Source: Caedibacter taeniospiralis | GTDB taxonomy: Bacteria > Pseudomonadota > Gammaproteobacteria > Francisellales > Francisellaceae | Length of the DNA: 32,000 nucleotides | Direction: 5' to 3' | NCBI RefSeq assembly: GCF_002803295.2 | Contig: NZ_PGGB02000001.1 | Coordinates: forward strand, 1-32,000 | Shown here: positions 2,551 to 25,747 of the stretch, piece by piece | Numbering within the stretch: position 1 is the first letter of the stretch | Layout: the number at the start of each line of letters is the position of its first letter | Made by a program: the position numbers and the translations under genes | The notes under the pieces: generated by a model | What the model was told of the DNA's origin: nothing | Database searches by the model: none | The model's input: only the letters and a program-made list of their open reading frames with translations

Positions 2551-2729
2551 TTATAGAGTAATGACCAAGAGAATAAGCGCAAACGGCGGATGCCTTGGCA
2601 GTCAGAGGCGAGGAAAGACGTGATAGCCTGCGAAAAGCTTCGGGGAGCTGGCAAATAAGCATTGATCCGAAGATATCTGAATGGGGGAACCCACCTCACT
2701 CATAAAGTGCTCAGCACTTTATTCATTTC

Positions 2730-2762
2730 GAGAAACTAGAGATTGGAAACTAGAAACTAGAG
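2730..2762 (+). repeat. One-sided CTAG-heptamer tract inside an expanded 23S helix-9 region (expansion roughly 2693-2768)
   Basis: GAGAAACTAGAGATTGGAAACTAGAAACTAGAG lies inside a stem closed by CCTCACTC / GAGTGAG. A perfect small hairpin (ATAAAGTGC TCA GCACTTTAT) sits next to it. The region is much longer than its E. coli counterpart. Confidence 0.6.
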
Positions 2763-2837
2763 TGAGTAGAGGGTGTAATTTGTGCATGAATGAGTATTTT
2801 AAGAGTGGGGTATCACTGACGTAAGTTAAGTGAGGCG

Positions 2838-2868
<31 letters not shown>

Positions 2869-3200
2869 TAGGAAAAGAAATCAACCGAGATTCCCTAAGT
2901 AGCGGCGAGCGAAGGGGGAAGAGCCTGGTATACTTTAGCATGTGAGTTAGTCGAACATTCTGGGAAGGATGACCATAGCAGGTGATAGTCCTGTAGACGA
3001 AAGCTTGGATGTGGAACTAGGTATACGAATAAGTAGGGCGGGACACGAGAAATCCTGTTTGAAGAAGGGGGGACCATCCTCCAAGGCTAAATACTACTGA
3101 CTGACCGATAGTGAACCAGTACCGTGAGGGAAAGGCGAAAAGAACCCCGATGAGGGGAGTGAAATAGAACCTGAAACCGTTTGCGTACAAGCAGTCAGAG

Positions 3201-3345
3201 CTAGAAACTAGAGACTAGAAACTAGAGACTAGAGATTAGGGGTTGAAGCGCTTCGCGATGATTAATTTACAAAAATAAATCATCTTGCAAAGCAAGATAC
3301 GACTCCTGGTTTCTAGTCTCTAGTTTCTAGTTTCTAGGAGACTAG
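3201..3345 (+). mobile_element. Intervening sequence / CTAG-heptamer palindromic element at the 23S helix-25 position
   Basis: It is inserted between the conserved GTACAAGCAGTCAGAG and TGATGGCGTACCTTTTGTATAATGGGTCAGCGA. The arms are CTAGAAACTAGAGACTAGAAACTAGAGACTAGAGATTAG and TTTCTAGTCTCTAGTTTCTAGTTTCTAGGAGACTAG. The core is the reverse complement of the 6397-6529 core type. Confidence 0.85.
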
Positions 3346-3765
3346 TGATGGCGTACCTTTTGTATAATGGGTCAGCGAGTTACTTTTAGTGGCGAGGATA
3401 ACTGAATAAGGGATCCGTAGCGAAAGCGAGTTTTAATAGAGCGGACAGTCGCTAGGAGTAGACCCGAAACCGACGCGATCTATCCATGACCAGGTTGAAG
3501 GTTGGGTAACACCAACTGGAGGACCGAACCCGGTAATGTTGCAAAATTATGGGATGAGTTGTGGATCGGAGTGAAAGGCTAATCAAGCGCGGAGATAGCT
3601 GGTTCTCCCCGAAAACTATTTAGGTAGTGCCTTGTGAATGACTCGTTGGGGTAAAGCACTGTTTCGACTAGGGGGATTTTGCGATCTTACCGACTCGATG
3701 CAAACTTAGAATACGACGAAGTTGAATCACGGGAGACACACGGCGGGTGCTAAGGTCCGTCGTGG

Positions 3766-3803
<38 letters not shown>

Positions 3804-3838
3804 GTTATCGCTAAGTGGGAAACGATGTGGGAAGGCAT

Positions 3839-3902
<64 letters not shown>

Positions 3903-3957
3903 GAGTCGGCCTGCGCGAAAGATTTAACGGGGCTAAGCGATACACCGAAGCTGCGGG

Positions 3958-4392
3958 ACTAGAGACTAGAGACTAGAAACTGGAGACTAGAGGAGATAAG
4001 ATGCCGTATCACAATTTATCAGTATATCAGAAGGCATATCAGTTAGCGCTGGAGCTACACGTGGAGAGTATGAAGTGGCCGCGGATAGAACAGTGTGAGA
4101 TTGGGAGTCAATTAAGGCGAGCGAGCAAATCCATATGTGCGAACATAGCGGAAGGGATGGGCAAGCAAGCGAGTGAAAAGGAAGTAAGAAGGTTTGTTCA
4201 GATAGCGATAGGCTCTTGCGATGAATGCCGGGTGTGGCTGGATTTTGCAAGGGACTTAGGGTATATCGATCAGGAGAGTCATAGGGGCTACGATGAGAGG
4301 TATTGCGAAGTTGGGCGAATGTTAAGAGGTATACAGAGAAGATATAGCTGATGTCTATTCTAGTATCTAGTTTCTAGTATCTAGTTTCTAGT
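3958..4392 (+). mobile_element. ORF-bearing intervening sequence at the 23S helix-45 position, bounded by CTAG-heptamer arms
   Basis: It is inserted between CCGAAGCTGCGGG and CGGTAGGGGAGCGTTCTGTAAGC. The left arm is ACTAGAGACTAGAGACTAGAAACTGGAGACTAGAGG. The right arm is TTCTAGTATCTAGTTTCTAGTATCTAGTTTCTAGT. Confidence 0.88.
4001..4351 (+). CDS. 23S rRNA intervening-sequence protein (S23p-type four-helix-bundle family)
   Basis: The 116-aa ORF has family hallmarks: Y.KAYQLALEL, QLRRASKSICANIAEG, IAIGSCDEC and ARDLGYI. A GGAG lies about 7 nt upstream of the ATG. The position inside a helix-45 IVS is the classic context for this family. Confidence 0.85.
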   Translation: MPYHNLSVYQKAYQLALELHVESMKWPRIEQCEIGSQLRRASKSICANIAEGMGKQASEKEVRRFVQIAIGSCDECRVWLDFARDLGYIDQESHRGYDERYCEVGRMLRGIQRRYS

Positions 4393-4946
4393 CGGTAGGG
4401 GAGCGTTCTGTAAGCTTATGAAGGTGCATTGAGAAGTGTGCTGGAGGTATCAGAAGTGCGAATGCTGACATGAGTAACGATAAATAAGTGAGATTCTTAT
4501 TGGCCGAAAACCCAAGGTTTCCTACGCAATGTTAATCAACGTAGGGTAAGTCGGCGCCTAAGGCGAATCCGAAGGGAGTAGTCGATGGGAAACAGGTTAA
4601 TATTCCTGTACCGATGGTAGTTGCGATGGAGAGACGGAGAAAGCTAGGTCTGCCTGGCGGATGGTAGTCCAGGTGAAAGCGTGTAGGTAGTGCACTTAGG
4701 CAAATCCGGGTGTATGATGATCTGAGGCGTGAGAGGGAACAGGGCTCTACGGGGTTCTGCCAAGAGATTGATGCTCGGCTTCCAGGAAAAGCTTCTAAGC
4801 ATAAATTACCATTGACCGTACTGTAAACCGACACTGGTGGGTGGGTAGAGAATACCAAGGCGATGAGAGAACCCAGGTGAAGGAACTAGGCAAAATGACA
4901 CCGTAACTTCGGGAGAAGGTGTGCCTCATTAGGGTGAAGGACTTGC

Positions 4947-5045
4947 CTGACCACTAAATTCTATGATGGATGAAAGCTGTTGAGAGTTGTAGAGATAGAC
5001 AATTTGTTGATAGCCTGTTGTAGGACGTGGAATTTAGTGGTCAGG
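4947..5045 (+). other. Extended hairpin (23S helix-63 variable region) closed by a 15-16 bp perfect inverted repeat
   Basis: CCTGACCACTAAATTC (4947-4961) and GAATTTAGTGGTCAGG (5030-5045) enclose about 68 nt that are absent from the E. coli homologous hairpin. Confidence 0.6.
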
Positions 5046-5185
5046 TGAACGTCTGGAGCGTGAAGAGGTTGCAAATACCAGGTGGCTGCGACTGTTTACT
5101 AAAAACACAGCACTCTGCGAACTCGGAAGAGGAAGTATAGGGTGTGACGCCTGCCCGGTGCTGGAAGGTTAATTGAAGGGGTTAT

Positions 5186-5486
5186 CCTACCACTTAATTA
5201 TTTTGGAGTTTGATATGTATTGTGTATACGTGATTTATTCGAAAGAATTAGATAGTTTTTACTTGTGGGTTATAGTGAAAACCTAAGGAAAAGGATTGAT
5301 TCGCATAAGTCGGGTAGAAGTAGATATACAAGCCGAACGAGAGATTGGATTCTTGTCTACTACGAAGCTTACGCAAGTGAAAAGCTTGCTAGGTTAAGAG
5401 AAGCTAAATTAAAGCGAGCGAATCGAATGAGGAGTTTGTTGTATAAAGGCTTAAGAGAAGAAATATCAGAGTAATTAAGTGGTAGG
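5186..5486 (+). mobile_element. 301-bp insertion in 23S domain IV (hairpin just 5' of helix 69), bounded by a 15-bp perfect inverted repeat and carrying a GIY-YIG ORF
   Basis: CCTACCACTTAATTA (5186-5200) is the exact reverse complement of TAATTAAGTGGTAGG (5472-5486). The flanks GAAGGTTAATTGAAGGGGTTAT and AGAAGCTCTGGATCGAAGCCCCAGTAAACGGCGGCCG are contiguous in other 23S rRNAs apart from a short loop. Confidence 0.85.
5215..5474 (+). pseudogene. Small GIY-YIG nuclease-family ORF (UPF0213/YhbQ-like), frameshifted near codon 17
   Basis: The ATG at 5215 gives MYCVYVIYSKELDSFYLWVIVKT*, which contains the GIY-like strand. The frame from 5265 continues (V)GYSENLRKRIDSHKSGRSRYTSRTRDWILVYYEAYASEKLARLREAKLK, which contains the YIG, Arg and Glu motifs. 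The two parts join only after a 1-nt (or 2-nt) frame correction around 5260-5266. Confidence 0.7.
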
Positions 5487-5509
5487 AGAAGCTCTGGATC
5501 GAAGCCCCA

Positions 5510-5552
<43 letters not shown>

Positions 5553-5553
5553 C

Positions 5554-5591
<38 letters not shown>

Positions 5592-5664
5592 CGATGGCCA
5601 CACTGTCTCCAACTGCGACTCAGTGAAATTGAAATTGCTGTGAAGATGCAGCTTTCCCGCGGCT

Positions 5665-5696
<32 letters not shown>

Positions 5697-6095
5697 CTTT
5701 GCACTGGACTTTGAGAATATTTGTGTAGGATAGGTGGGAGACTAAGAGATTCGTACGCTAGTATGGAAGGAGTCGACGTTGAAATACCACCCTGATATTT
5801 TTGGAGTTCTAACTCAGACGAGAGTCGAGGACAGTGTATGGTGGGTAGTTTGACTGGGGCGGTCTCCTCCTAAAGAGTAACGGAGGAGTACGAAGGTGCA
5901 CTCGGCGCGGTCGGAAATCGCGCCAAGAGTATAAAGGCAAAAGTGCGCTTAACTGAGAGAGTGACGGCTCGATCAGGTACGAAAGCATGCTATAATGATC
6001 CGGTGTTTTTTTTTGAATAAGACATCGCTCAACGAATAAAAGGTACGCTAGGGATAACAGGCTTATAAATTCTGAGAGTTCCTATTAAAGAATTT

Positions 6096-6130
<35 letters not shown>

Positions 6131-6341
6131 TGGTGCAGAATCTGCCAAGGGTTTGGCTGTTCGCCAATTAAAGTGGTACGTGAGCTGGGTTTAAAACGTT
6201 GTGAGACAGTTTGGTCCCTATCTGTTGTAGAATTAAGAAACGAGGCTGAGATCGACGCCAGTACGAGAGGACCGACTAGAACTAGCCTCTGGTTCGGCAT
6301 CTATTTCAACAAAGGCATAGCCCAGTAGCTACGTTCGGAAT

Positions 6342-6374
<33 letters not shown>

Positions 6375-6396
6375 AGCCTCAAGATGAGATCTCCCG

Positions 6397-6529
6397 TCTA
6401 GAGACTAGAAACTAGAGACTAGAAACTAGGAGTTGAGTCTTGCTTTGCAAGATGGGTTGTTTTTTATAAATCAATTCATCGCGAAGCGATTCAAGCTCTA
6501 GTTTCTAGTCTCTAGTTTCTAGTCTCTAG
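6397..6529 (+). mobile_element. Intervening sequence / CTAG-heptamer palindromic element at the 23S helix-98 position
   Basis: It is inserted between AAGATGAGATCTCCCG and TTAAGGGTTGTTGAAGACTACGACGTTGATAGG. The arms are TCTAGAGACTAGAAACTAGAGACTAGAAACTAGG and CTCTAGTTTCTAGTCTCTAGTTTCTAGTCTCTAG. The core contains the hairpins CTTGCTTTGCAAG and CGCGAAGCG. Confidence 0.85.
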
Positions 6530-6668
6530 CTTAAGGGTTGTTGAAGACTACGACGTTGATAGGCTGGCTGTAGAAGTGCAGTAATGTATGAAGCTAACCA
6601 GTACTAATTGCCCGAGAGACTTGGTTATTACTCTATGATAGATTGTTAGAGCTTTCTGCTCGCAGGTT

Positions 6669-12639: not shown

Positions 12640-13179
12640 TTATTTTCCCCAAGCGATGACAAGATAAATATATATGCCTATGTACAACAAGAAAAATACA
12701 AAAGGCATATAGGTTTCAATGCGTTTTAGTGGCGTGAAAGAGCCTTTTTGCAGTGCAGTAACGCGTTCTGCCGAGAAAATTGGACTTGACGGCAAGCGTT
12801 TTTCCAGGGCTCCAATGACTTGCTCCTTGATGTTGACCGTATGGCGATAAAAGCGTACCACGCGCCACCAGCAGTAGCAAATGGCTAATAATCCCAATAA
12901 GGGTAGAACAAGCAAGCTCAGGGATAGTTCAGTGCTTGAGCGGCTAATGCCAAGCGCCATAATGCCGACAATGGCAATATTGGTAATTAAAAAAAACAAG
13001 TTGATGGAAACGCGGCGAAAGCTGGCGCGATCAGCCATTTCAACGTAAATTTTATATTGCTCAATTAGTAATGAATAATATTGCTCATTGCTGAAATGAT
13101 CTTGCTCTTCATTCCATAAATTATCCATGTTGATGTTATCATAACGACTCATGAATGATTGACTCCAATTGGTTGACAA
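12640..13179 (-). CDS. Small integral membrane protein (possibly RipA-like), first gene of the four-gene operon
   Basis: The 179-aa product has an N-terminal soluble helix (YKIYVEMADRASFRR) followed by 3 hydrophobic segments. Its stop abuts the start of the aminotransferase gene. Confidence 0.55.
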   Translation of the reverse strand: MSTNWSQSFMSRYDNINMDNLWNEEQDHFSNEQYYSLLIEQYKIYVEMADRASFRRVSINLFFLITNIAIVGIMALGISRSSTELSLSLLVLPLLGLLAICYCWWRVVRFYRHTVNIKEQVIGALEKRLPSSPIFSAERVTALQKGSFTPLKRIETYMPFVFFLLYIGIYIYLVIAWGK

Positions 13180-13389
13180 TTTAACGCTAGCCAGAGTAGC
13201 AGATTTGAAGGCATTGGACTATGGCAAAATGGCGTATTCTGTTATAAATCTATCTGGATTGCAGCACACCTCCTGCGGGCTTTTTGATTTTTAGATTAGC
13301 CACAGCGTCAAACAACTGTAATCTTTCGCTCTTCTTTAAATCAAAAAAAATTGCCAACTCGACCTAAGCTAACACCAAATGTAGCAACA

Positions 13390-14016
13390 TCACACATTTG
13401 TCTCGGAGCCTTTTGTGAGCACTACGCTTCGTGCCTTTAAAGCGAGCTTTTGAATGATGGTGGGATATAACTCATGCTCTAATGCTTTAACGGTTTGCTC
13501 AAGGGTTGCAGCAGTATCAAAGGGTAAAACCTTCATGCGCTTTTGGGCGATGATTTTTCCACCATCCAGACTTTCATCAACATAGTGGATGGTTGTTCCA
13601 TGTTCTCGATCTTTGGCATCAATGACGCGCTGATGGGTATTTAAGCCCTTATGTTTTGGCAGTAATGAAGGATGAATGTTAATGACTTTGTGTTCATATT
13701 GATGAATGAATGTGGAAGATAAAATACGCATAAATCCGGAAAGTACAATGAGATCTGGTTGAAATGGTGCGATAAGCTCAGTAAGTCTTTGATCGTAGTT
13801 TTCGCGAGACTGTTTTTTGTGCTTCGGTAAAAACAGGCAAGGAATATTTGCCCTTAAGGCACGCTGAACGGATTCGGAAGGGGTGTCTGACACAACCGCT
13901 CTGACTTCAATGTTATGCTGCAAATGAAGTTTATCAATAATAGCCTGCAGGTTCGAGCCAAAGCCTGATGATAAAATAACGAGTTTAAATGGATTATCCG
14001 TGGACATAGTTGACAA
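13390..14016 (-). CDS. purN: Phosphoribosylglycinamide formyltransferase
   Basis: The 208-aa product carries [26 protein letters not shown] and the [11 protein letters not shown] motifs. Confidence 0.9.
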
Positions 14017-15037
14017 AAGCTTGTTGTTGTTTACTCTGACTTAGGTAACCGATTTCCCACGCGCTTTCGCCCATGGCTGTTAGCGCGTTGAGCACAGCAT
14101 CTTTATCTTCTTTAGCAACAGCCATCACCATCCCCGCCCCGCAGTTAAAGGTTCTTAGCATCTCATGCTGGACAATACTTCCTTTTTGCTGAAGCCATTG
14201 GAAGATTGCAGGCAATTGCCAGCTGTTTAGATTGATATTCGCACAGGTATAATCAGGAAGCACTCGGGGAATATTTTCAGTAAATCCACCACCTGTAATA
14301 TGTGAGATGGCATGAATGTCAAACTTTTCAAGAAGGGTTAAAATCGTTTTAACATAAATTCTCGTTGGTGTTAATAAAGTTTTGCCCAAGGTGCTCTCGC
14401 CAAACGGCATGCTCAAATCTGCTTTAACGTGCGAGATGACCTTGCGCACCAGCGAATAGCCATTGGAGTGAACGCCCGATGAAGCGATGGCAATAAGTAT
14501 ATCATTAGCTTTAACTTTGCTGCTTGAGATGATTTTATCTTTTTCAACAATCCCGACACAAAAGCCTGCCAGGTCATATTCTTCAGCCTGATACATGCCT
14601 GGCATTTCAGCGGTTTCGCCACCAACCAGCGCGCAACCTGATTGTCTACACCCATCAGCAATGCCAGAGATGACCTTGGCAGTCTGATCAGCATTGAGTT
14701 TTCCTGTGGCATAATAGTCAAGAAAAAACAAAGGTTCAGCACCACCAACGATTAAATCATTGACACACATCGCCACAAGGTCTATGCCAATACTGCTGTG
14801 ATCATTTAAATCAAAAGCAAGCTTTAGCTTGGTGCCGACACCATCTGTACCAGAAACAAGCACGGGTTTTTTGTAGCGATCAAGCGGGATTTCAAACAGC
14901 GCACCAAAACCGCCTAATCCCCCAAGCACCTCTTTGCGCATCGTAGATTTTGCTAAGGGTTTTATTTTTTCAACAAGCAGGTTCCCTTCATCGATGCTCA
15001 CACCAGCGTCCTGATAGCTTAATGATTGATTTGCCAT
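13994..15037 (-). CDS. purM: Phosphoribosylformylglycinamidine cyclo-ligase (AIR synthetase)
   Basis: The 347-aa product carries [25 protein letters not shown] and [11 protein letters not shown]. It overlaps purN, the typical purMN arrangement. Confidence 0.93.
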
Positions 15038-15585: not shown

Positions 15586-15793
15586 ACCGTTTTCGCCCTG
15601 TGCGGCAGTGAACGCTTCAATATTTATCTTATTAATTTCATTATTTTTCTAAGCTGCCTGTACGGCAGTGGACTAAAGAAGATATAGCTGCTAAAAAAAT
15701 AGCAATTTCTAAGCTGCCTGTACGGCAGTGGACAACAACCTTCATATGTGGGGCTTCCGCAATCTTTTCTAAGCTGCCTGTACGGCAGTGGAC
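15586..15793 (-). CRISPR. Type I-F-style CRISPR array: 4 repeats of 28 nt (the trailer-most one degenerate) and 3 spacers of 32 nt
   Basis: The minus-strand repeat GTCCACTGCCGTACAGGCAGCTTAGAAA sits at 15646-15673, 15706-15733 and 15766-15793. A degenerate copy GTTCACTGCCGCACAGGGCGAAAACGGT sits at 15586-15613. The periodicity is exactly 60 nt. The repeat closely matches the I-F consensus GTTCACTGCCGTACAGGCAGCTTAGAAA. Confidence 0.9.
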
Positions 15794-15939: not shown

Positions 15940-16855
<916 letters not shown>

Positions 16856-17080: not shown

Positions 17081-17374
17081 TTATAACAACAGCACCGACT
17101 TAAACACATCTGCAACTGCCTTAGCGCCATAGTGTTCTATTTTATTGCGACCATTTTTGCCCAATTTGTAAAAACGCAGGCTATCCATTTCTGGATCATA
17201 ACTATCCAAAAGTTTCATTTTCAACACACACCATTGATCGGGGCTTATGTCACATTCAAATACTGAGTTTTGCACCCTAACCCCATAATCCTGACAGGTC
17301 TCTGCAATTTTTCTTAAACGCCGAACGCCAGTTTCTTCCTTCAGTGATACATCATAAGTGATTAAAATAAGCAT
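17081..17374 (-). CDS. cas2: CRISPR-associated endoribonuclease Cas2
   Basis: The 97-aa product begins MLILITYDVS and contains VQNSVFEC. It is the last cas gene before the array. Confidence 0.9.
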   Translation of the reverse strand: MLILITYDVSLKEETGVRRLRKIAETCQDYGVRVQNSVFECDISPDQWCVLKMKLLDSYDPEMDSLRFYKLGKNGRNKIEHYGAKAVADVFKSVLLL

Positions 17375-17460
17375 CTGCTTCTCCCGAATAGCCTGTGTTT
17401 TTATTCACTTTAAAACTCACGTAAACGCACAGGCTGTTTTAACAAGACCATTAGAACCCT

Positions 17461-18703
17461 CTATTTAGGCATAAATGGTGGGTAAGCATCCAAGTCACCT
17501 CTTAAATGCCGCGCCAATAAAAGTGCCTGAACATGTGGCAATAACCCGATTTGCACCTCTTCACCCAAAAATGGGTGTTGGATCGTTTCCTGCTTACGGT
17601 CGCTGCGAGCCATGGAGAGCGGAACGCGAGGGCGAGTAGACCCGGGTAGCCTTGCGCTGTTGATCAGCAAGCGACGTGCCGAAGGCGCCAGAGCGAAGTC
17701 TGTGAAACAGCTTTTACCCAAGGCGTAGAGTAGAATCCCGGGCAAAATTTATACCGCCGAGGATAGCCGATTCGATTTTGTGTATGGATATACAAAATCT
17801 ATCATGAGGCCCGAGGCACCCTATTTGTAAAGTTACAAGCAATAGTTTTCTGGTATCATCCTTGAGTTTTACAGAACCACCCACTTCAATTTCAAAGTCC
17901 TGAGGTTTCACTTGACGTCGATTAATTAAACTCAACACCATACGATCAACAAACCAGGCACGAAACTCCTCCAAAATATCTTGTGCCAAACTATCTCTAC
18001 CGGGGCGCACTTGATGAAGAAATCCCATCTGTGGATCAAGCCCAACCCCCTGCAAAGCAGCACTGATGTCATTACCGACGACGCTATACAAAAATGATAG
18101 CATTGCATTTACAGGATCTAATGGTGGACGACGACTACGAGTATTAAATTGAAAATCTGTCCGAGCCACAGGTAGGATTAATTCATTAAAAACACCAAAG
18201 TAAGCAGATGCCGCCTCGCCTTCTAAACCTAAAATAAGCTCTAGACTTTGTGCTTTTTGCAAGCGGCGAAGTGCATAGCTTATTTTCTCAATGGCATTTT
18301 CGACTTCGCTATTTTGGTCATGATTTCGCACCCTACGATAAAGTACCGCACGAGATGAATTAAGCTTGGCAGCAATAACATTTCTGGCAATAGCCACGGG
18401 ATTGAGCTCGGCTATTTTATACTGTGTTTTACGCAATATAACATTACCATTTTGTCTACCATGCAATCGTCCAAGAAAACGTCCATACTCGGTAAAGAAA
18501 GCAAGGTGAACATTGTTTTCACCGCAAAATCCCAGTAAGAAGGGGGATAGCATTACATTGCCAAAACAGTAAATTGCCTGAATAGCATGAATAGGTAACT
18601 GCATTACTTTCTGCTTTGCGACTTCAATAACAAGCGTTTCACGTTCTTTGTGCAAATAAGCGCCCTGCCTAGTAATGTAAAGGGTGTTTTGTAATTTCTT
18701 CAA
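17461..18703 (-). pseudogene. cas1: cas1 (type I-C) interrupted by a 220-bp element at 17601-17820
   Basis: The upstream piece (18703-17821) ends ...DDTRKLLLVTLQ(I). The downstream piece (17600-17464) reads (D)[45 protein letters not shown]. Deleting 17601-17820 gives one 340-aa ORF of typical Cas1 length and C-terminus. Confidence 0.9.
17601..17820 (-). mobile_element. GC-rich non-coding insertion element, copy 1 (220 bp), inside cas1. On the gene's sense strand it reads GGTGCC...GCAGCG
   Basis: It shares a ~70-nt left module and a ~104-nt right module with 19747-19934 and 23600-23803. It has no ORF. Boundaries come from a three-way alignment and are good to about +/-3 nt. Confidence 0.85.
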
Positions 18704-19338
18704 TCCAAATCCTCCCTGAAAAGAGCATTAACATACAGCTGACTTTTATCTTTGAACGTCAACTTTGGATTACATAAATCATATAAGGAACAGGCATTAC
18801 ACTTTTTTTCATATTTAACTTTCGGTGTAACACCAGCCTGCAACAAAAGACGCGTTTCATCAACAATCTGTAAAGTCTCATCACGTAAAGCCTTCGTTAA
18901 TTCAACATCAATTCGGTGACGACTTTGCCAATACCACATTGCTGCGCGAGGAATGACTGTATTAAGCATCTCTTCCAGACACAACGCCTGCGCGCACAAC
19001 TGCACAAGATCAATATGATCTTCCTTAGGTTTCCCACGTTTATACTCAACAGGAAAACATGAACCTGTTTTAGTATCAAGTTCAACAAGGTCAAGCTTGC
19101 CAATCAACCCAATCTTAGGCGCTGATACATGCACACCACGTTCATAACGTATACCTTTACGCGTCTCAGGCACCCCGCTATCCACTCGCTGATGCAACTG
19201 CTGTCCTTGTGCGGTCAACCAATTCTCAGCCCATGCCTGCTCATTGTGAATAAGAGCGCATTGCCTGGGGCAGAAAGCATAGTGTTGCAAAGCAGAGAGG
19301 GGGATCAGGAGAGAATCGTCCAATTTAAAATCCATCAA
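18700..19338 (-). CDS. cas4: CRISPR-associated exonuclease Cas4
   Basis: The 212-aa product has an N-terminal Cys (YAFCPRQC) plus a C-terminal CNACSLYDLC cluster, and the RecB-like motifs (DLVE, EYKRGK). It overlaps the cas1 start by 4 nt. Confidence 0.88.
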   Translation of the reverse strand: MMDFKLDDSLLIPLSALQHYAFCPRQCALIHNEQAWAENWLTAQGQQLHQRVDSGVPETRKGIRYERGVHVSAPKIGLIGKLDLVELDTKTGSCFPVEYKRGKPKEDHIDLVQLCAQALCLEEMLNTVIPRAAMWYWQSRHRIDVELTKALRDETLQIVDETRLLLQAGVTPKVKYEKKCNACSLYDLCNPKLTFKDKSQLYVNALFREDLD

Positions 19339-20349
19339 TTATTTCAGGCTTAAGACCTTCAAGATCAGCAAGTGAGAAACTTCCATCAGGATTCACCGTT
19401 AACGATCGATGTACTTTTGCTGATGAGTGTTGCCCCGATCTGGAATTATGCAGCCACCAGATCAGTTTTTCCACCGCCATGGAGCCTTCTGGTCTTGCAG
19501 AAGAAGCATCACCCTCAAACAACTTTGGGAATATAGATTTTATGGTCTCTGCATCCGCATCGCTAAAACCAGTTTTTTCGGCTAGCTGCGGCGACATCGC
19601 GCCATAGGCAACGTAAACAGCAGTATCGACTCTGTGTTTCATACCCATGGTATCGGAACTTTTTTTACTGCCATCGCCATCACCACTAACACTTTTGGTA
19701 ATTTGCGTACTGGTAATGCTTACTGGCTCAATACTGAAAGCCGTAGGGTGCCTCGGGCCTCATGATAGATTTTGTATATCCATACACAAAATCGAATCGG
19801 CTATCCTCGGCGGTTTGGATAAAGCTGTTTCACAGACTTCGCTCTGGCGCCTTCGGCACGTCGCTTGCTGATCAACAGCGCAAGGCTACCCGGGTCTACT
19901 CGCCCTCGCGTTCCGCTCTCCATGGCTCGCAGCGAATGAATACTCACCGGACCACGGATAGGAATTGATACCCCATCCTTTTCTTCACTTTTAAAAGCAA
20001 ATAGTTGTCCAAAAGCACGCACATCGAACCAAGTTTCACAAGCTTTTTTTGCAGCAGTTTCTGGCTTGATTTTTTTAGCGTTTAAAACATCTTTACCTAG
20101 CACACCTTCAGCCCTGGCTCGAAGACTGTGATATTCATCCGTCTTCTTTTCATCTGACTGAACAAAAATAGCCTGGCCCGCATCTTGGAGGCGATCTCTT
20201 GCTTTTCGCTTCAAACATACATCTGTAACTTCGCCAAAACCATCATAATCTGTACGTGGCCGGTTACCATTTAAAGGATCACCGTTCGGATTAGCGTTTT
20301 TTACGGAAAAAATAATGGCGAAATCGATTTTTTTGCTCAGTGAATTCAT
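19325..20349 (-). pseudogene. cas7: cas7 (csd2, type I-C) interrupted by a 188-bp element at 19747-19934
   Basis: The N-terminal piece reads MNSLSKKIDFAIIFSVKNANPNGDPLNGNRPRTD...GVSIPIRGPVSIH. The C-terminal piece reads (T)AFSIEPVSITSTQITKSV...MGMKHRVDTAVYVAYGAMSPQLAEKTGFSDADAE.... Deleting 19747-19934 yields a single 278-aa ORF. Confidence 0.9.
19747..19934 (+). mobile_element. GC-rich non-coding insertion element, copy 2 (188 bp), inside cas7 and inverted relative to copies 1 and 3
   Basis: The plus strand reads GGTGCCTCGGGCCTCATGATAGATTTTGTATATCCATACACAAAATCGAATCGGCTATCCTCGGCGGT...CACAGACTTCGCTCTGGCGCC...CCATGGCTCGCAGCG. This is the reverse complement of the plus-strand reading of the other two copies. 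It lacks the ~32-nt central segment of copy 1. Confidence 0.85.
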
Positions 20350-20475
20350 TGTTGCTCTCCTTCATTGGTAGTTAATTCTATTTCGGATTTGGTTACCCAC
20401 ACACCCTTTTCCAACTTATGCTCCCTTAACCATTTTCGTTGGCAATGAAAGCCCAATAGGTACTCCCCGCTTAAC

Positions 20476-22365
20476 TTATCTTTTGAGGAAGCGAGTAAAA
20501 GCATCACAAATATCGTCCAACAATCTGTTGTAAGCAGCCTCTAAAGGTGGCAACTTAACACGTAACCGCTGTTGATATGGAGTCAAAGCTTCGCGAATAC
20601 TCTGCCAAGTTGATACCGGATGATGAGCAAAACGCTGCATTAAACGACTAGCATGTGTAGTGCGATTTTTTTCTCCCGCAATAGATATTGCCATTTCCTC
20701 AATCATTTCAGCTACTGCCAGCAGCCGCCCAAATAGATAATCCCGCCCTGTATATTTCATATCAAGTGACATAGCATATTCTCTCCTTTTATTTAAATTG
20801 GGTTGGCGTTCTGGGTGGTGAAAACCGCGATAGAGCGCACAGGCGACACCAAGGTTTCTCTCCCATTCCCAAAGTTCACTGTTGTTTCTGTTGCTGGCTC
20901 GACTGACAGCCAGGTTGACAATATCCATAGGTAAAGCTCTGCCTTCCAAAATACAGGGCATCATCCTTTCATAAAGGCTCTTTTTAAGCGCTTCATTGCT
21001 TTTCACCATATCACCATAGGTAGCTTGCAATATATTCCAAGGTGAAGGAGCACTGACAGACCAAAACACTGTTGTTTTTGGCTTTTTATTATTACCTGAC
21101 TCGACTTCCTTGCTAATCCGCTGCGGCCAAGCCAAATGGCTGTGCCATTTTTCGATAGTTTGCACGTAATCCTTAGCCATAAAATCGCGATAATAAATAA
21201 TCGCCATACGTCCAGGAGTGGCAGAGTCCAGCCCCATAATAACGATGCTTTCCTGATCCTTGAGTCTGGCGATGCGACCATCGAAATAACCTGCCATGTA
21301 TCGATTTAACGCTTTGACAAAGTTTTGTCCAAGGTCGCTCGTTACATTAATTTCAGTAGCCAATGAATCTTTTCCATCATCAGTAACTTCCTCGAAATTG
21401 TCCAGCTCCAGACTTGGCACCAATGGAGCAGGGATAGGTTTGCCTGATACTGCCCATGCCACCACCACCTGATCTCCATTCTTGCTAGCCTGATTAGCAA
21501 TCAGCCAACGCAATGTATTATGAGCTTTTTGGGTAATATCAAAACCGACGTTCGCAACCTGCTCTCCATCTGTAAATCGACCACGGAAAGTAAAGCCGGA
21601 TGTATCATTGGCTGATACCAGCTTTGCTTTATCACCTGTATGTCTAAGCTTTGCGGGATGATTTGAGGCTGAGGGTTGCAATAGTCCAGATACATAACAA
21701 AGCTCATCCTTCCCTGAACCTTCGGCATCAAAAGCTATCCATGACTGTTGTATTGATTTATCTTTCCAAGTATCTGGAAATAGGTCGCCTGGAGTAATAA
21801 CACTCCAGCAAACCATTGCGTTACCCTGATCCAGTTCGCCTTTTTCCTTCGGTAGGGTTTTGAATATTAAAGGCAAAGGATTTTCATCTGTTACCTCAAA
21901 TGGCCAAGAGGTTAAAAGCCGATTATTTTCATCCATATAACAAACTTTAGCGTTTATTAGATCTTCTATCACAGTCTGCTTAATGATGTAATTGCATACC
22001 GCTTGAACCTTTGGATGACTCACGCCAGAGTTACACCATTCTCTGATTTGTGACCGATATCCATCGAAATAAGGTTTTTTCTTCCCACCGAACTTTTCAT
22101 AGTCGGCTGCAACATATTGCAGCTTGTCCGCTAAAGGGTGTGGTGCTTCGCCACTACTTCTTCCTGCAGACTTTTCTGTAGATGGCAAAATGATCTGCGT
22201 CTTTTCTAAAACTTTTGCACCTATAAAATTTCCATCAAGATCTATTTGAATATTTATATGGGCATTCTGCATAGTATGGCTTGTCGGCATTAGCTGCTTT
22301 TCTTCCGGCAAATCCAGCGTCATAGCTTTTTCATAGGTCTCGTAAAGCTTTGCCATCCAGCTCAT
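20476..22365 (-). CDS. cas8c: Cas8c (Csd1), type I-C large subunit
   Basis: This is a 629-aa intact ORF between cas5 and cas7, in the canonical I-C position and size. It overlaps the cas5 stop by 4 nt. I have no specific motif check beyond context and size. Confidence 0.75.
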   Translation of the reverse strand: MSWMAKLYETYEKAMTLDLPEEKQLMPTSHTMQNAHINIQIDLDGNFIGAKVLEKTQIILPSTEKSAGRSSGEAPHPLADKLQYVAADYEKFGGKKKPYFDGYRSQIREWCNSGVSHPKVQAVCNYIIKQTVIEDLINAKVCYMDENNRLLTSWPFEVTDENPLPLIFKTLPKEKGELDQGNAMVCWSVITPGDLFPDTWKDKSIQQSWIAFDAEGSGKDELCYVSGLLQPSASNHPAKLRHTGDKAKLVSANDTSGFTFRGRFTDGEQVANVGFDITQKAHNTLRWLIANQASKNGDQVVVAWAVSGKPIPAPLVPSLELDNFEEVTDDGKDSLATEINVTSDLGQNFVKALNRYMAGYFDGRIARLKDQESIVIMGLDSATPGRMAIIYYRDFMAKDYVQTIEKWHSHLAWPQRISKEVESGNNKKPKTTVFWSVSAPSPWNILQATYGDMVKSNEALKKSLYERMMPCILEGRALPMDIVNLAVSRASNRNNSELWEWERNLGVACALYRGFHHPERQPNLNKRREYAMSLDMKYTGRDYLFGRLLAVAEMIEEMAISIAGEKNRTTHASRLMQRFAHHPVSTWQSIREALTPYQQRLRVKLPPLEAAYNRLLDDICDAFTRFLKR

Positions 22366-23066
22366 AACGATGCCTCCTCTGTATCCACATCCAGCAAGTT
22401 ATCTCCGATAACAAATTCTTTAGCTTTCATCTCACGAATAAAACGACGAATTTCGCAACTCCCTGGTCTTGGAAATTCCACAACACCATTTTTCATAACG
22501 GCATGCCAAAAACGGCTATGAAATTCATCTTTTCCCGTCTCGTCCGGGTAATCGAAACCATGAAACATCAAACCAAACGATAGCTCATCAATGTTGTCAT
22601 AGGCTCCAAGACCTTCTCCAAATTCGCAAGGCTCTACATAACCCTGGCAATCTCTTACACCAAGAAAAATATCTTGCCGCCCACCCTTTTCCAGCATGCG
22701 CTTTGCGATAGCAAAATGTTTTCCATCAATTTGATCCGCTGCCAATTCAGGACGATACTTGTTCATTTCAAAGTGTGCCTCTACCTGATACTCAACTTCG
22801 TGCAGAAAGGTATATATAGCCAAGCTATTTCCACCACCCCAAACCAGAGGTTTAGTGCCTTTGGTTTGAGTTCGAATGGACTTTATTACCCGAACCCTAT
22901 CCACATGCCAAACGATAGTTGGTTTCTAATAGATTGACTTGAGAACACCCTTAATCGCCTCATAAGTAGGCACATGGTAAGAGCATTTTTCCCCACCAAT
23001 CCTGGTAATTGGGTCGGTAAATAAAGCGTAACGTCCCCAAAGTCTGAAACTAATAATGTTTTTCAC
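22362..23066 (-). pseudogene. cas5: cas5 (cas5d, type I-C) with an in-frame TAG at 22926-22928
   Basis: The minus strand reads ...[28 protein letters not shown].... Cas5d proteins have a conserved (A/S)IYWKP here, so the TAG replaces TGG (Trp). The likely start is the GTG at 23066, preceded by AGGAGG. The N-terminus [19 protein letters not shown] is typical of Cas5d. Confidence 0.85.
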
Positions 23067-23074
23067 GTTACCTC

Positions 23075-25747
23075 CTATAAAATCTGAGTTGTCATCATAC
23101 CTACGCACTCGGTTCCAAGACCAAAACTTTTGCTGTAATACATCTCATCCAGGTAGTAAATGCCATGCCCAGGCTGAATTTCGTGCACTGCTTTCTCCTT
23201 TTTTAGTTTGTCCCAAACGTTAGGAAAGACATTCACGCTATATTTTTGCGCTTGTCGTAACAATTGATAGTAGCGACGAGCATTAAACTCCTTTGCTACA
23301 GAGCAAAGCTCAGCTACCAGCTTTTGCCCCTTCTTACCATATTGTACAATGACTGCCTGGGTTGGAGCGTCGATAGCCTTAAACTGTTTACCCGCCTCCA
23401 TAAAAGCCTGTCGCAAGAGGGGGACTTTCCCTTCACGATCAGAAAAATTTGAATTACATCCGATGCGAGAACTTAACAGGTTGAGCAAACTATCGTTCCT
23501 GTGATCTTTTCCTTTCAAGGGGTAGCTCATATCATCTGCTCGATCAAAAAAATAATAGCGAAAATACTGCTTGATCGCTGCCGGTGACAATACATCTTCC
23601 GCTGCGAGCCATGGATAGCGGAACGCGAGGGCGAGTAGACCCGGGTAGCCTTGCGCTGTTGATCAGCAAGCGACGTGCCGAAGGCGCCAGAGCGAAGTCT
23701 GTGACGTTGAGGCGGACGGCCCGGGCAAAATTTATACCGCCGAGGATAGCCGATTCGATTTTGTGTATGGATATACAAAATCTATCATGAGGCCCGAGGC
23801 ACCCTTGTACCCTTCAGAAAGAACCCTCTTCGCCTTCTCTTTGCCTATTTCAATTTCCTTCAGCATTCCTGTACTTTCACTGTCCGGGTTCACAATAAAA
23901 ACCTGCCCTTTGATCAAATTTCCTTGCTCATCTTTCAGATTGCCATTCCTATTACAGCGTCCTGCAGCCTGAGCAATAGAGTCCAAACCTGCCAAGAAGC
24001 GTATCACAGATGCAAAGTCCACATCAACGCCTGCTTCAATCAGTTGCGTTGAGATACAAAGCACGGGCTTTCGATGCTTCAGGTGCTTCTTAATTAGATA
24101 TAGGAAAATCCTGCGATGACGCGGACATTGATTTGTACTTAAATGGAATAAAGACGATGCATTCACCTGCTCGACACAACGTTGATACAACTCCTGCGCC
24201 CATGTTTTGGTGTTGACAATTACCAAGCAACTCCCGTGTATCTGGAGCTGCTCTACCGCCAGTGTAGATATCTCTGCGACATTCCAACCACCAGGCTTTA
24301 TTTGGTTATAAATACGTACCCGCCGAAGCTCAATAAAATGCCTATCAAAGTCGCCTGCCAGTTCATTTTCTTGGGGAATGACTAACTGCCCTTTATCAGG
24401 TTTTTTTAATTCGTTCAGTAAAGGCTGAGTCGCTGTACAAAGCACTACCGTAGTATCGCAACGCTGCACGAAAAAATTCATTGCGTTACAAAAAATATGC
24501 ACACAATTAATTGGCAATGTCTGAATCTCATCAAAAACAAGCACACTTTTAGCTAACTGATGCAAACGCCTAACACCTTTGGTTCCACCACTAAACAAGG
24601 TTTCCAGTAACTGCACCATAGTGGTCAGAACAATGGGAGCGTCCCAGTTTTCCGATACCAGTTTGGCGTGCCAGGTTTGCTGTTCAGACTCCAAATTAGA
24701 GTGATGTTCCAATACCCACGACCTAGCATCATCTCGATGCTCTACCACTTCGCGTATCACCTTAGCATTTTGCTCAATGATAGACGTGTATGGGATAACA
24801 TAGATAATACGCTCCAATCCGTGATGCTGAGCATGATGTAAAGCGTAACGTAAACTGGCGTAAGTTTTACCTCCACCTGTTGGTACAGTTAGCGTATAAA
24901 GCCCTTGGGACTTATACGCGTTACTCTTACAGTTATCGGAAATTTCCCGACGCAATTCATCTACATAGTTTCGCACTGACAGCCCCGAAAGATAATTTTC
25001 CAAGCGACCAATAGCAACGTCCCAATTAATTGATCCTGACTTTCCTAGGCGCTCTTTTAATCTGACAGGATCTTCAAACTCAGCGCTATTGAGTCTGTCA
25101 GCATCAATTAGGCAACTGAACAAAAAGCGGGTGAAAAATCCCAGGTTAAAGTAATCGATCATCGATGGCTTTTCAAAATTGACAAACTCTTTCAGTTTAT
25201 CAAACAGACCTTTTACCAACTCAACATTTGCAATTTGCTCAATTTTATCAAGTATCTCTTTCTCTGCGACCTGCCGACACTCGTCAAGGTTTACTTTCTC
25301 ATCAGCCTTACTCATACGATCAGAAAATACAGGCTTATCATCAATTCCAAAACAATCGATTAAACCACTGTGATGAGAGGCAATACATAAAGCCAGCATT
25401 TGACCACACAGCTCTCCTTGCCCAGCACCACCAATACGTTTCAGCTTCTGCCAAACCAAGTGAGCACCTGCTGTTGAGTGATCGACTTTCCCTTTCATCC
25501 CTTTAGCATCAACATAATCATCCTCATCAGGGTTAATTTCACCTGTAGCTGACTTTATATAGCGTTGAAACTCTTGGCTGTACTTTCCGAAATCATGCAA
25601 CAAACCAAGCAACCTGCCAGCATTTTCCGCACCCATTTTACTGGAAAAGGTACTAGCAATCTCTCCAACCTCATACAAATGAGTATGAAGAAACTGACAT
25701 TCTCCATCAATTTTTCTTTTGTGTGCAATAAATTTAGGCTTACTCAT
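23075..25747 (-). pseudogene. cas3: cas3 (HD nuclease plus SF2 helicase, type I-C) interrupted by a 204-bp element at 23600-23803
   Basis: The N-terminal HD motif (LLGLLHDFGKYS), Walker A (TVPTGGGKT), DEIQ box and later helicase motifs (AAGRCNR) are intact. The upstream piece ends ...RVLSEGYK. The downstream piece reads (E)DVLSPAAIKQYFRYYFF.... Deleting 23600-23803 gives an 822-aa ORF. Confidence 0.9.
23600..23803 (-). mobile_element. GC-rich non-coding insertion element, copy 3 (204 bp), inside cas3, in the same orientation as copy 1
   Basis: It has the same left and right modules as the other copies. Its central segment is ATAAATTTTGCCCGGG plus the unique stretch CCGTCCGCCTCAACGT. The length is a multiple of 3, but the element carries an in-frame TAA (23732-23734). 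Confidence 0.85.

Follow-up and report, generated by a model that had tools for sequence, protein, structure and literature searches.

The type I-C clustered regularly interspaced short palindromic repeat (CRISPR) operon of Caedibacter taeniospiralis carries, within its cas7 (csd2) gene, a 191-nucleotide (nt) sequence which is very probably a recent insertion of a non-coding, non-autonomous mobile DNA element that neither duplicates its target nor has inverted ends. We analyzed this element in a 32,000-nt stretch of DNA (positions 1 to 32,000 of contig NZ_PGGB02000001.1), hereafter the window, in which two further copies interrupt cas1 and cas3. Our data demonstrate that the element inserts at the DNA level, precisely, without duplication and in either orientation, and that the cas7 insertion is recent and polymorphic between strains. 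The element is a bacterial non-autonomous mobile element which behaves like a miniature inverted-repeat transposable element (MITE) but fails both tests that define a MITE. It is previously undescribed as far as the searched literature on Caedibacter and the C. taeniospiralis plasmid pKAP298 shows, neither the repeat nor its terminal sequences being described there; Jeblick and Kusch (2005) lies outside that search, and an earlier description in that work is possible.

The limits of the cas7 insertion come from a filled/empty site comparison with two Logan contigs from independent sequencing runs (L001 from SRR28719869 and L002 from SRR28719868), which were reached via a match of the repaired Cas7 protein, P0001. 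Both contigs are 99.6–100% identical to window positions 17355–24308 and lack the insertions, the cas7 and cas1 sites being empty in both and the cas3 site in L001. Comparing the junctions at the three sites gives a single definition of the insert, 5'-CGCTGCGAGCC...GGCACCCT+N-3', where N is A, A and T. The length of target duplicated is 0 bp at all three filled/empty sites, and the boundary ambiguity is 0, 2 and 0 nt, the 2 nt (CG) at cas7 being settled by the other two copies. As an internal control, the same junction method reveals a 7-bp duplication (TCACTTA) and 19-nt inverted ends for an insertion sequence (IS) located in cas2 of the sister strain, and the comparison therefore detects duplications where they are present. 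On the gene strand, the cas7 target reads ...TATTCATT^CGGCTTTC..., the caret marking the blunt entry point. The insertion (element copy 2) is composed as follows.

19744–19934, minus strand: element copy 2, 191 nt, limits from the filled/empty comparison with L001 and L002; ends on the minus strand 5'-CGCTGCGAGCC...GGCACCCTA-3'
19821–19934, minus strand: 5' constant arm, element positions 1–114, 100% identical to the pKAP298 copy at 33116–33229
19815–19820, minus strand: internal deletion junction (ATCCAA), which stands for ~100 nt of the full-length element
19744–19814, minus strand: 3' constant arm, 71 nt, 100% identical to all other copies, ending in CACCCT plus the variable tail nucleotide, A at 19744
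19769–19792, minus strand: subterminal 11-bp hairpin, ATTTTGTGTATGGATATACAAAAT on the element strand, 24–25 nt before the 3' end

Excision of 19744–19934 yields a 277-aa Cas7 (...VSIHSAFSIEP...) which is 100% identical to P0001, matches PF05107 from end to end (3.8e-73) and is 93% identical to Csd2 of Cellvibrio japonicus. The repaired cas7, cas1 and cas3 are open reading frames (ORFs) equal to those of the sister strain. A preliminary description, made from the window sequence, had placed the insertion at 19747–19934 (188 nt) and deduced that its removal restores a 278-aa frame. Its right-hand limit and the restored frame stand; the empty sites move the start to 19744, and the protein is one residue shorter than proposed because removal of only 188 nt keeps one extra codon. 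The expectation that the repaired Cas7 would be free of further disruption or missing conserved blocks is borne out by the full PF05107 match and the identity with P0001.

The central claim of that description, that cas7 is split by the same element as cas1 and cas3 but in the opposite orientation, is confirmed far beyond chance by an inverted-repeat search. Positions 19744–19814 are 100% complementary to 17753–17823 and 23736–23805, 19814–19935 are 98% complementary to 17600–17721, and 19830–19939 are 97% complementary to 23595–23704; the arms shared among the window copies thus span 70–122 nt at 97–100% identity. The orientation holds on re-checking: the cas7 copy is inverted relative to the cas1 and cas3 copies, and all three genes lie on the minus strand. 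The two sister copies are listed below.

17601–17823, plus strand: element copy 1, 223 nt, in cas1, subfamily A, tail nucleotide A
23600–23806, plus strand: element copy 3, 207 nt, in cas3, subfamily B, tail nucleotide T

By subfamily, copies 1 and 2 group together and apart from copy 3, so that the operon has been struck by at least two source lineages. All three lie in a cas region of ~7 kb, and no copy occurs in the remaining 25 kb of the window. As described earlier, a segment of ~32 nt present in copy 1 is absent from the cas7 copy (223 versus 191 nt). The modular architecture deduced from this, a constant left part, a variable middle and a constant right part, gives way to a different picture. 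Alignment with full-length copies, which are found on pKAP298 and in metagenomes, shows that the window copies (223, 191 and 207 nt) are nested and differing internal-deletion derivatives of a non-coding element of ~290 nt, which explains the variable middle among them. The deletion in copy 1 corresponds exactly to a predicted middle hairpin.

We found the element at a minimum of 27 distinct sites, in copies of 113–291 nt which sit in many unrelated genes and in intergenic sites. The 2004 record of pKAP298, the sole match in annotated collections, contains four copies of 290–291 nt, one of 113 nt and one diverged 3' end. A degenerate pattern for the 3' end located 19 further distinct sites on metagenome contigs, mostly ~100 nt from a contig end, indicating that the repeat breaks assemblies. 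At least one of these contigs comes from the species of the window, since the DEAD-box helicase of contig L018 recurs exactly in run SRR28719867, whose run set holds the window locus at 99.7% identity. All 9 copies whose 5' end lies inside the retrieved sequence begin with CGCTGCG, and the last 70 nt are near-invariant apart from the tail nucleotide, with one substitution in 28 copies and an invariant CCT before the tail. The full-length element has a G+C content of 56%, compared with 37% for pKAP298, ~43% for the window and 41.3% for the whole C. taeniospiralis genome (PMC7297999). No match to the element was obtained in 185,579 species genomes searched with an exact 34-mer and the degenerate 3'-end pattern, a collection which apparently excludes the host species, nor in viral contigs (IMG/VR) or phage records; a 21-kb contig (L023) from a marine relative in the Fastidiosibacteraceae carries no copy, and peptides encoded by the element have no match in the protein database. 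On another contig, L012 (210–388 and 2892–2951), a 769-aa gene lies between 60-nt inverted repeats ending GGCTACTTGCCGGTAATTCCTG; the left repeat is followed by just the last 26 nt of the element, with a shorter unit ending GGCACCCTA 80 nt further on. This arrangement may represent another element family with a common 3' terminus.

The two ends of the element are unlike each other. Alignment of the first 60 nt with the reverse-complemented last 60 nt scores 15, against a mean of 14.3 for shuffled sequences (206 of 500 shuffles scoring at least 15), so there are no terminal inverted repeats. RNA and DNA folds of both strands are no better than those of shuffled sequences (z from –0.5 to –1.7), the alignment fold contains no compensatory substitutions, and Rfam gave no relevant match, either at gathering thresholds on the window or at E≤10 on copy 1 and a full-length copy. 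The subterminal 11-bp hairpin is nevertheless predicted in every fold, and it is solely near the 3' end that a strong hairpin occurs. In the middle hairpin, all four variable positions keep G-U pairing on the strand running from CGCTG to CACCCT, which hints weakly (about 1 in 16) at a single-stranded role for this strand. Promoter-like sites number 12, against 12.4 in shuffled sequence (standard deviation 3.5), and terminator-like sites 9, against 5.6 (standard deviation 2.7), neither count clearly above chance and no site of either kind inside an element copy.

Target choice is guided weakly and from the 5' side. The nine left flanks available are TACGGT, TTCATT, ATCTTC, TACACT, AACGCT, TTCATA, AACAAT, ATCGCT and TTCATA; as their last four bases (CGGT, CATT, CTTC, CACT, CGCT, CATA, CAAT, CGCT and CATA) make apparent, the C at –4 alone is fixed. 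This C is present in 9/9 flanks (P about 4e-7, or about 4e-4 for any invariant base over ten positions), positions –5 and –6 are A or T in all nine (P 0.01 each), –3 is a purine in eight (P 0.02), and a T follows at +1 in 17 of 28 sites (P 8e-4), which together give a weak motif, WWCRNT^T. The 3' end of the element, CACCCTN^, likewise has a C four bases before the cut. The TAG, TAG and AAG flanks which the preliminary description had taken as a possible target motif belong instead to the element, whose final three bases (C-T-N) they show in reverse complement. At this tail position N, 28 copies have 14 A, 7 G, 7 T and no C (P = 0.002), and the comparison with empty alleles, known for three sites, places the nucleotide within the insert each time. 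Neither head-to-tail tandem copies nor circle-junction sequences were seen in any retrieved locus.

The non-coding nature of the element suggests that it is mobilized in trans, in which case an enzyme encoded elsewhere in the genome would move it. We tentatively consider that HUH-type chemistry is the best fit, the mover then being a single-strand nickase/transposase of the IS91, Helitron or IS200/IS605 kind, with a likeness to IS91 and Helitrons rather than to IS200/IS605. This preference is based on the unlike ends, the subterminal hairpin restricted to the 3' side and the 5'-flank motif echoed at the 3' terminus, and also on the variable last nucleotide and the frequent internal deletions that span a hairpin. 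It is non-autonomous rolling-circle elements that the element most resembles. Like IS91/ISCR elements, Helitrons and their non-autonomous derivatives, it has unlike ends with no terminal inverted repeats, no target duplication, a hairpin before the 3' end only, a sequence preference on the 5' side and an imprecise or variable 3' terminus. It differs from them in its target, WWCRNT^T as opposed to GTTC/CTTG or A^T, and in lacking tandem or read-through copies. With IS200/IS605 elements and palindrome-associated transposable elements (PATEs) it shares the absence of inverted ends and duplication, the subterminal hairpin and a target preference confined to the 5' side; it gave no TnpA, TnpB or omega-RNA match.

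Several observations weigh against an HUH-type mover. A Pfam search of the pKAP298 proteins and of 64 ORFs flanking element copies in metagenome contigs, the latter judged on the 25 of 76 families that were listed, found no HUH enzyme, neither a Y2/HUH (RepHel) transposase nor a Y1 TnpA. These proteins instead include Tn3 proteins, Rpn/YhgA-like proteins, TniB, a tyrosine recombinase and a group II intron reverse transcriptase (RT), and pKAP298 also has an IS256-like transposase in its PLSDB annotation; none of these genes lies between element ends. Three properties count specifically against the IS200/IS605 version: the conserved target base, at –4, is 3 nt from the element end, with no fixed tetra- or pentanucleotide abutting the left end; a convincing hairpin exists at one end alone, with no matching 5' hairpin; and copies in opposite orientations lie less than 6 kb apart on one replichore. 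Moreover, the variable tail nucleotide fits no standard model, and the left flanks are a small sample (n = 9).

Other routes of mobilization have to be weighed against HUH-type transposition. It is unlikely, but conceivable, that the element follows a transposition route new for bacterial miniature elements, blunt, duplication-free and guided by the –4 C, with one variable 3' nucleotide added or carried and with a catalyst that is not regarded as a transposase. Candidate catalysts may be the multicopy Rpn/YhgA-like PD-(D/E)XK nucleases (two encoded among the flanking ORFs, a third on pKAP298), or else the RT of the group II intron, which would then use an RNA other than the intron. Equally doubtful is the involvement of a site-specific recombinase of the tyrosine or serine class, acting as in Tn554, Tn916 or IS607 through a circular intermediate, the tail base being a coupling base carried over from the previous site. 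Such a mechanism would account for the lack of both inverted ends and duplication, a likeness to Tn554 and Tn916 which extends to a possible carry-over of donor flank, as well as for a variable tail nucleotide inside the insert, and an XerC-like recombinase gene is present on pKAP298. However, the element's end-to-end junction and the targets have no common core (ambiguity 0, 2 and 0 nt), and no recombinase gene adjoins any copy. Known coupling sequences are 5–7 nt long, whereas here a single nucleotide varies and the preceding CCT is invariant in 28 copies; Tn554 and Tn916 are, in addition, large and autonomous.

A retroelement resembling a short interspersed nuclear element, transcribed, copied by an RT such as that of a group II intron and inserted as complementary DNA, would explain the tail as non-templated and the deletions as template switches. 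We regard this as very unlikely. In its favor, the RT/maturase of a group II intron (TIGR04416, 293 bits) is encoded on pKAP298, A predominates in the tail and C never occurs there, the deletions span a hairpin, and the stem variants keep G-U pairing on one strand (4/4), itself a weak hint. On the other hand, there is no 5' truncation, 9/9 visible 5' ends starting with CGCTGCG, and there are no variable-length target duplications, no domain V, no GUGYG...AY ends and no promoter signal above chance; the pKAP298 intron has a short RT and itself appears to have lost its 5' end at an element copy. Least probable of all, to the point of being rejected, are a classical MITE mobilized by a DDE transposase, a self-splicing intron and an assembly artefact. 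The element is indeed small, non-coding and multicopy, and it recalls classical MITEs (Correia, RUP, Nezha) in its size, mobilization in trans, disruption of genes and polymorphism between strains. But the inverted ends and target duplication that define MITEs were both tested for and are absent, and the element is G+C-rich relative to its host (about 41–43% G+C) while MITEs are A+T-rich. The earlier exclusion of an intron or RNA processing in favor of DNA-level insertion holds, given the empty sites, the opposite orientations in co-directional genes, the lack of an Rfam match and folding equal to that of shuffled sequence; besides, neither 191 nor 223 is divisible by three, and the cas3 frame is split even though its insert measures 207 nt. 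An artefact is contradicted by three different deletions with exact common ends and by the occurrence of the same element in the independent 2004 plasmid record.

Some individual candidates were also rejected. A group II intron or derivative is incompatible with the ends CGCUG...CCCUN and with the absence of any RF00029 or D1-D4 match at E≤10 under conditions which detected the genuine pKAP298 intron. Group I or other self-splicing RNA was dismissed on the two orientations, the absence of an Rfam match and the fold z-scores of –0.5 to –1.7. IS110/IS1111 elements, which use a bridge RNA, were set aside since the target is degenerate rather than specific over at least 11 nt and no core is common to the target and the element junction. 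In the region 38855–41058 of pKAP298 (L003), an annotated reverse transcriptase is the group II intron RT/maturase, and intron domains V–VI occupy 40945–41058. The D1-D4 match begins only at 39185, which is model position 101 and lies ~40 nt away from the element copy on the opposite strand (38855–39145); from this arrangement the intron appears to be truncated in 5' at this copy. A link between the two was rejected, as element and intron share no sequence or structure and the element merely abuts the truncated 5' end.

The host operon is extensively damaged. The 191-nt insert frameshifts and inactivates cas7, its sister copies inactivate cas1 and cas3, and with two smaller lesions, defined relative to L001, five of the seven cas genes are broken in the window.

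23075–25747, minus strand: cas3, type I-C operon, interrupted by element copy 3
22362–23066, minus strand: cas5, nonsense codon W47stop from a single-nucleotide polymorphism at 22927 (relative to L001)
20476–22365, minus strand: cas8c (csd1), 8-nt deletion near 20491 leading to a C-terminal frameshift (relative to L001)
19325–20349, minus strand: cas7 (csd2), whole gene including the insert
19935–20349, minus strand: cas7 (csd2), N-terminal part
19325–19743, minus strand: cas7 (csd2), C-terminal part, which with 19935–20349 makes 834 nt, 277 aa plus a stop codon
18700–19338, minus strand: cas4
17461–18703, minus strand: cas1, interrupted by element copy 1
17081–17374, minus strand: cas2
16491–16855, minus strand: type I-C CRISPR array, 6 repeats and 5 spacers, part of the disrupted operon

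The sister strain has lost the operon by other lesions, a +1 frameshift in cas8c (L001 position 3084) and another IS, with the terminal inverted repeat ACGCCATGTTCAACTTTTT, which interrupts cas2 and cas3 at sites corresponding to window positions 17355–17361 and ~24308. This IS is present neither in the window nor on pKAP298, and its ends were located as follows.

Sister-strain IS ends: L001 1–26 and 6368–6394; L002 2772–2798; L027 1–27; L030 1–28; L015 8905–9140

Based on these independent and heterogeneous lesions in both lineages, we believe that the operon is most likely dispensable and decaying, the insertions being tolerated rather than directed to cas genes. The clustering could instead be adaptive, the insertions having been selected or targeted to shut off a harmful CRISPR system, for instance one targeting the cell's own R-body plasmid, a scenario we view as rather improbable. 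It would fit three insertions in ~7 kb of cas genes with none in the other 25 kb, and the independent loss of the operon in both strains. A further point in its favor is that the window has four more spacers than contig L027, which joins window position 16826 to 16589 without the 236-nt stretch 16590–16825 and so has one spacer versus five; if real, this suggests activity shortly before shut-down. However, the shorter L027 array is possibly a short-read assembly collapse, and the difference is either that or a recent gain or loss of spacers. The spacers show no match to pKAP298, to the element or to any retrieved locus, and no self-targeting spacer was found as a reason for cas inactivation. 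Furthermore, the lesions are mixed (a point mutation, small indels and two mobile elements), as is typical of neutral decay, and the element also occurs in many unrelated genes and intergenic sites.

Within the type I-C array, window spacers 4 and 5 share ~15–20 nt. A second, mini CRISPR array lies at 15646–15793, with two spacers and three type I-F-like repeats (Rfam CRISPR-DR4), a repeat type which differs from that of the neighboring I-C cas genes; the window has no I-F cas genes. A three-repeat CRISPR and type I-C cas genes have been published for C. taeniospiralis (PMC7297999), and the mini array appears to be this reported three-repeat, two-spacer locus. This combination, the G+C content of the window and element copies identical to those on pKAP298 all make C. 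taeniospiralis the very probable source of the DNA. Between the two arrays is a Fic/DOC-family ORF of 177 aa (15940–16473; Fic-like_C, 9e-25, with a partial Fic domain match).

Elsewhere in the window, the 23S rRNA match at 2563–6628 covers 4066 nt compared with a 2925-nt model and therefore contains large intervening sequences. One 23S insertion includes an ORF (4001–4351) for a 116-aa 23S rRNA intervening-sequence protein (PF05635, 7e-32). Arrays of the heptamer CTAGAAA/CTAGAGA and its complements form inverted pairs at 296–435, 1979–2098, 3197–3344, 3938–4405 and 6391–6550, bracketing the 5' part of the 16S gene, the tRNA-Ile/Ala spacer units and the 23S insertions, and appear to form long stems for processing, with a tandemly repeated heptamer as the unit. 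At ~13000–14500 the cumulative GC skew turns from rising to falling and gene orientation switches, which is compatible with a replication terminus or with just a switch of gene strand.

The picture of C. taeniospiralis as the owner of a functional type I-C CRISPR needs correction. Its genome paper attributed working immunity to seven type I-C Cas proteins (PMC7297999), and five of the seven genes are broken here. In this young endosymbiont of Paramecium, the operon offers a clean and datable case of gene loss driven by mobile DNA. Decay of a cas operon by mobile DNA is familiar; the unusual part is the insertion signature and the mobilizing enzyme. Rickettsia palindromic elements are likewise selfish short repeats of unexplained mobility inside protein genes of an obligate intracellular bacterium, but those are old, diverged, in frame and tolerated, whereas the copies described here are ~97–100% identical in their shared arms, recent and inactivating. 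With empty alleles at hand, the element is active and trackable while falling outside the MITE definition, and its 290-nt repeats break short-read assemblies of this organism. The identity of the mover could reveal an overlooked mechanism of mobilization or add a new host group to those in which HUH-type transposition occurs.

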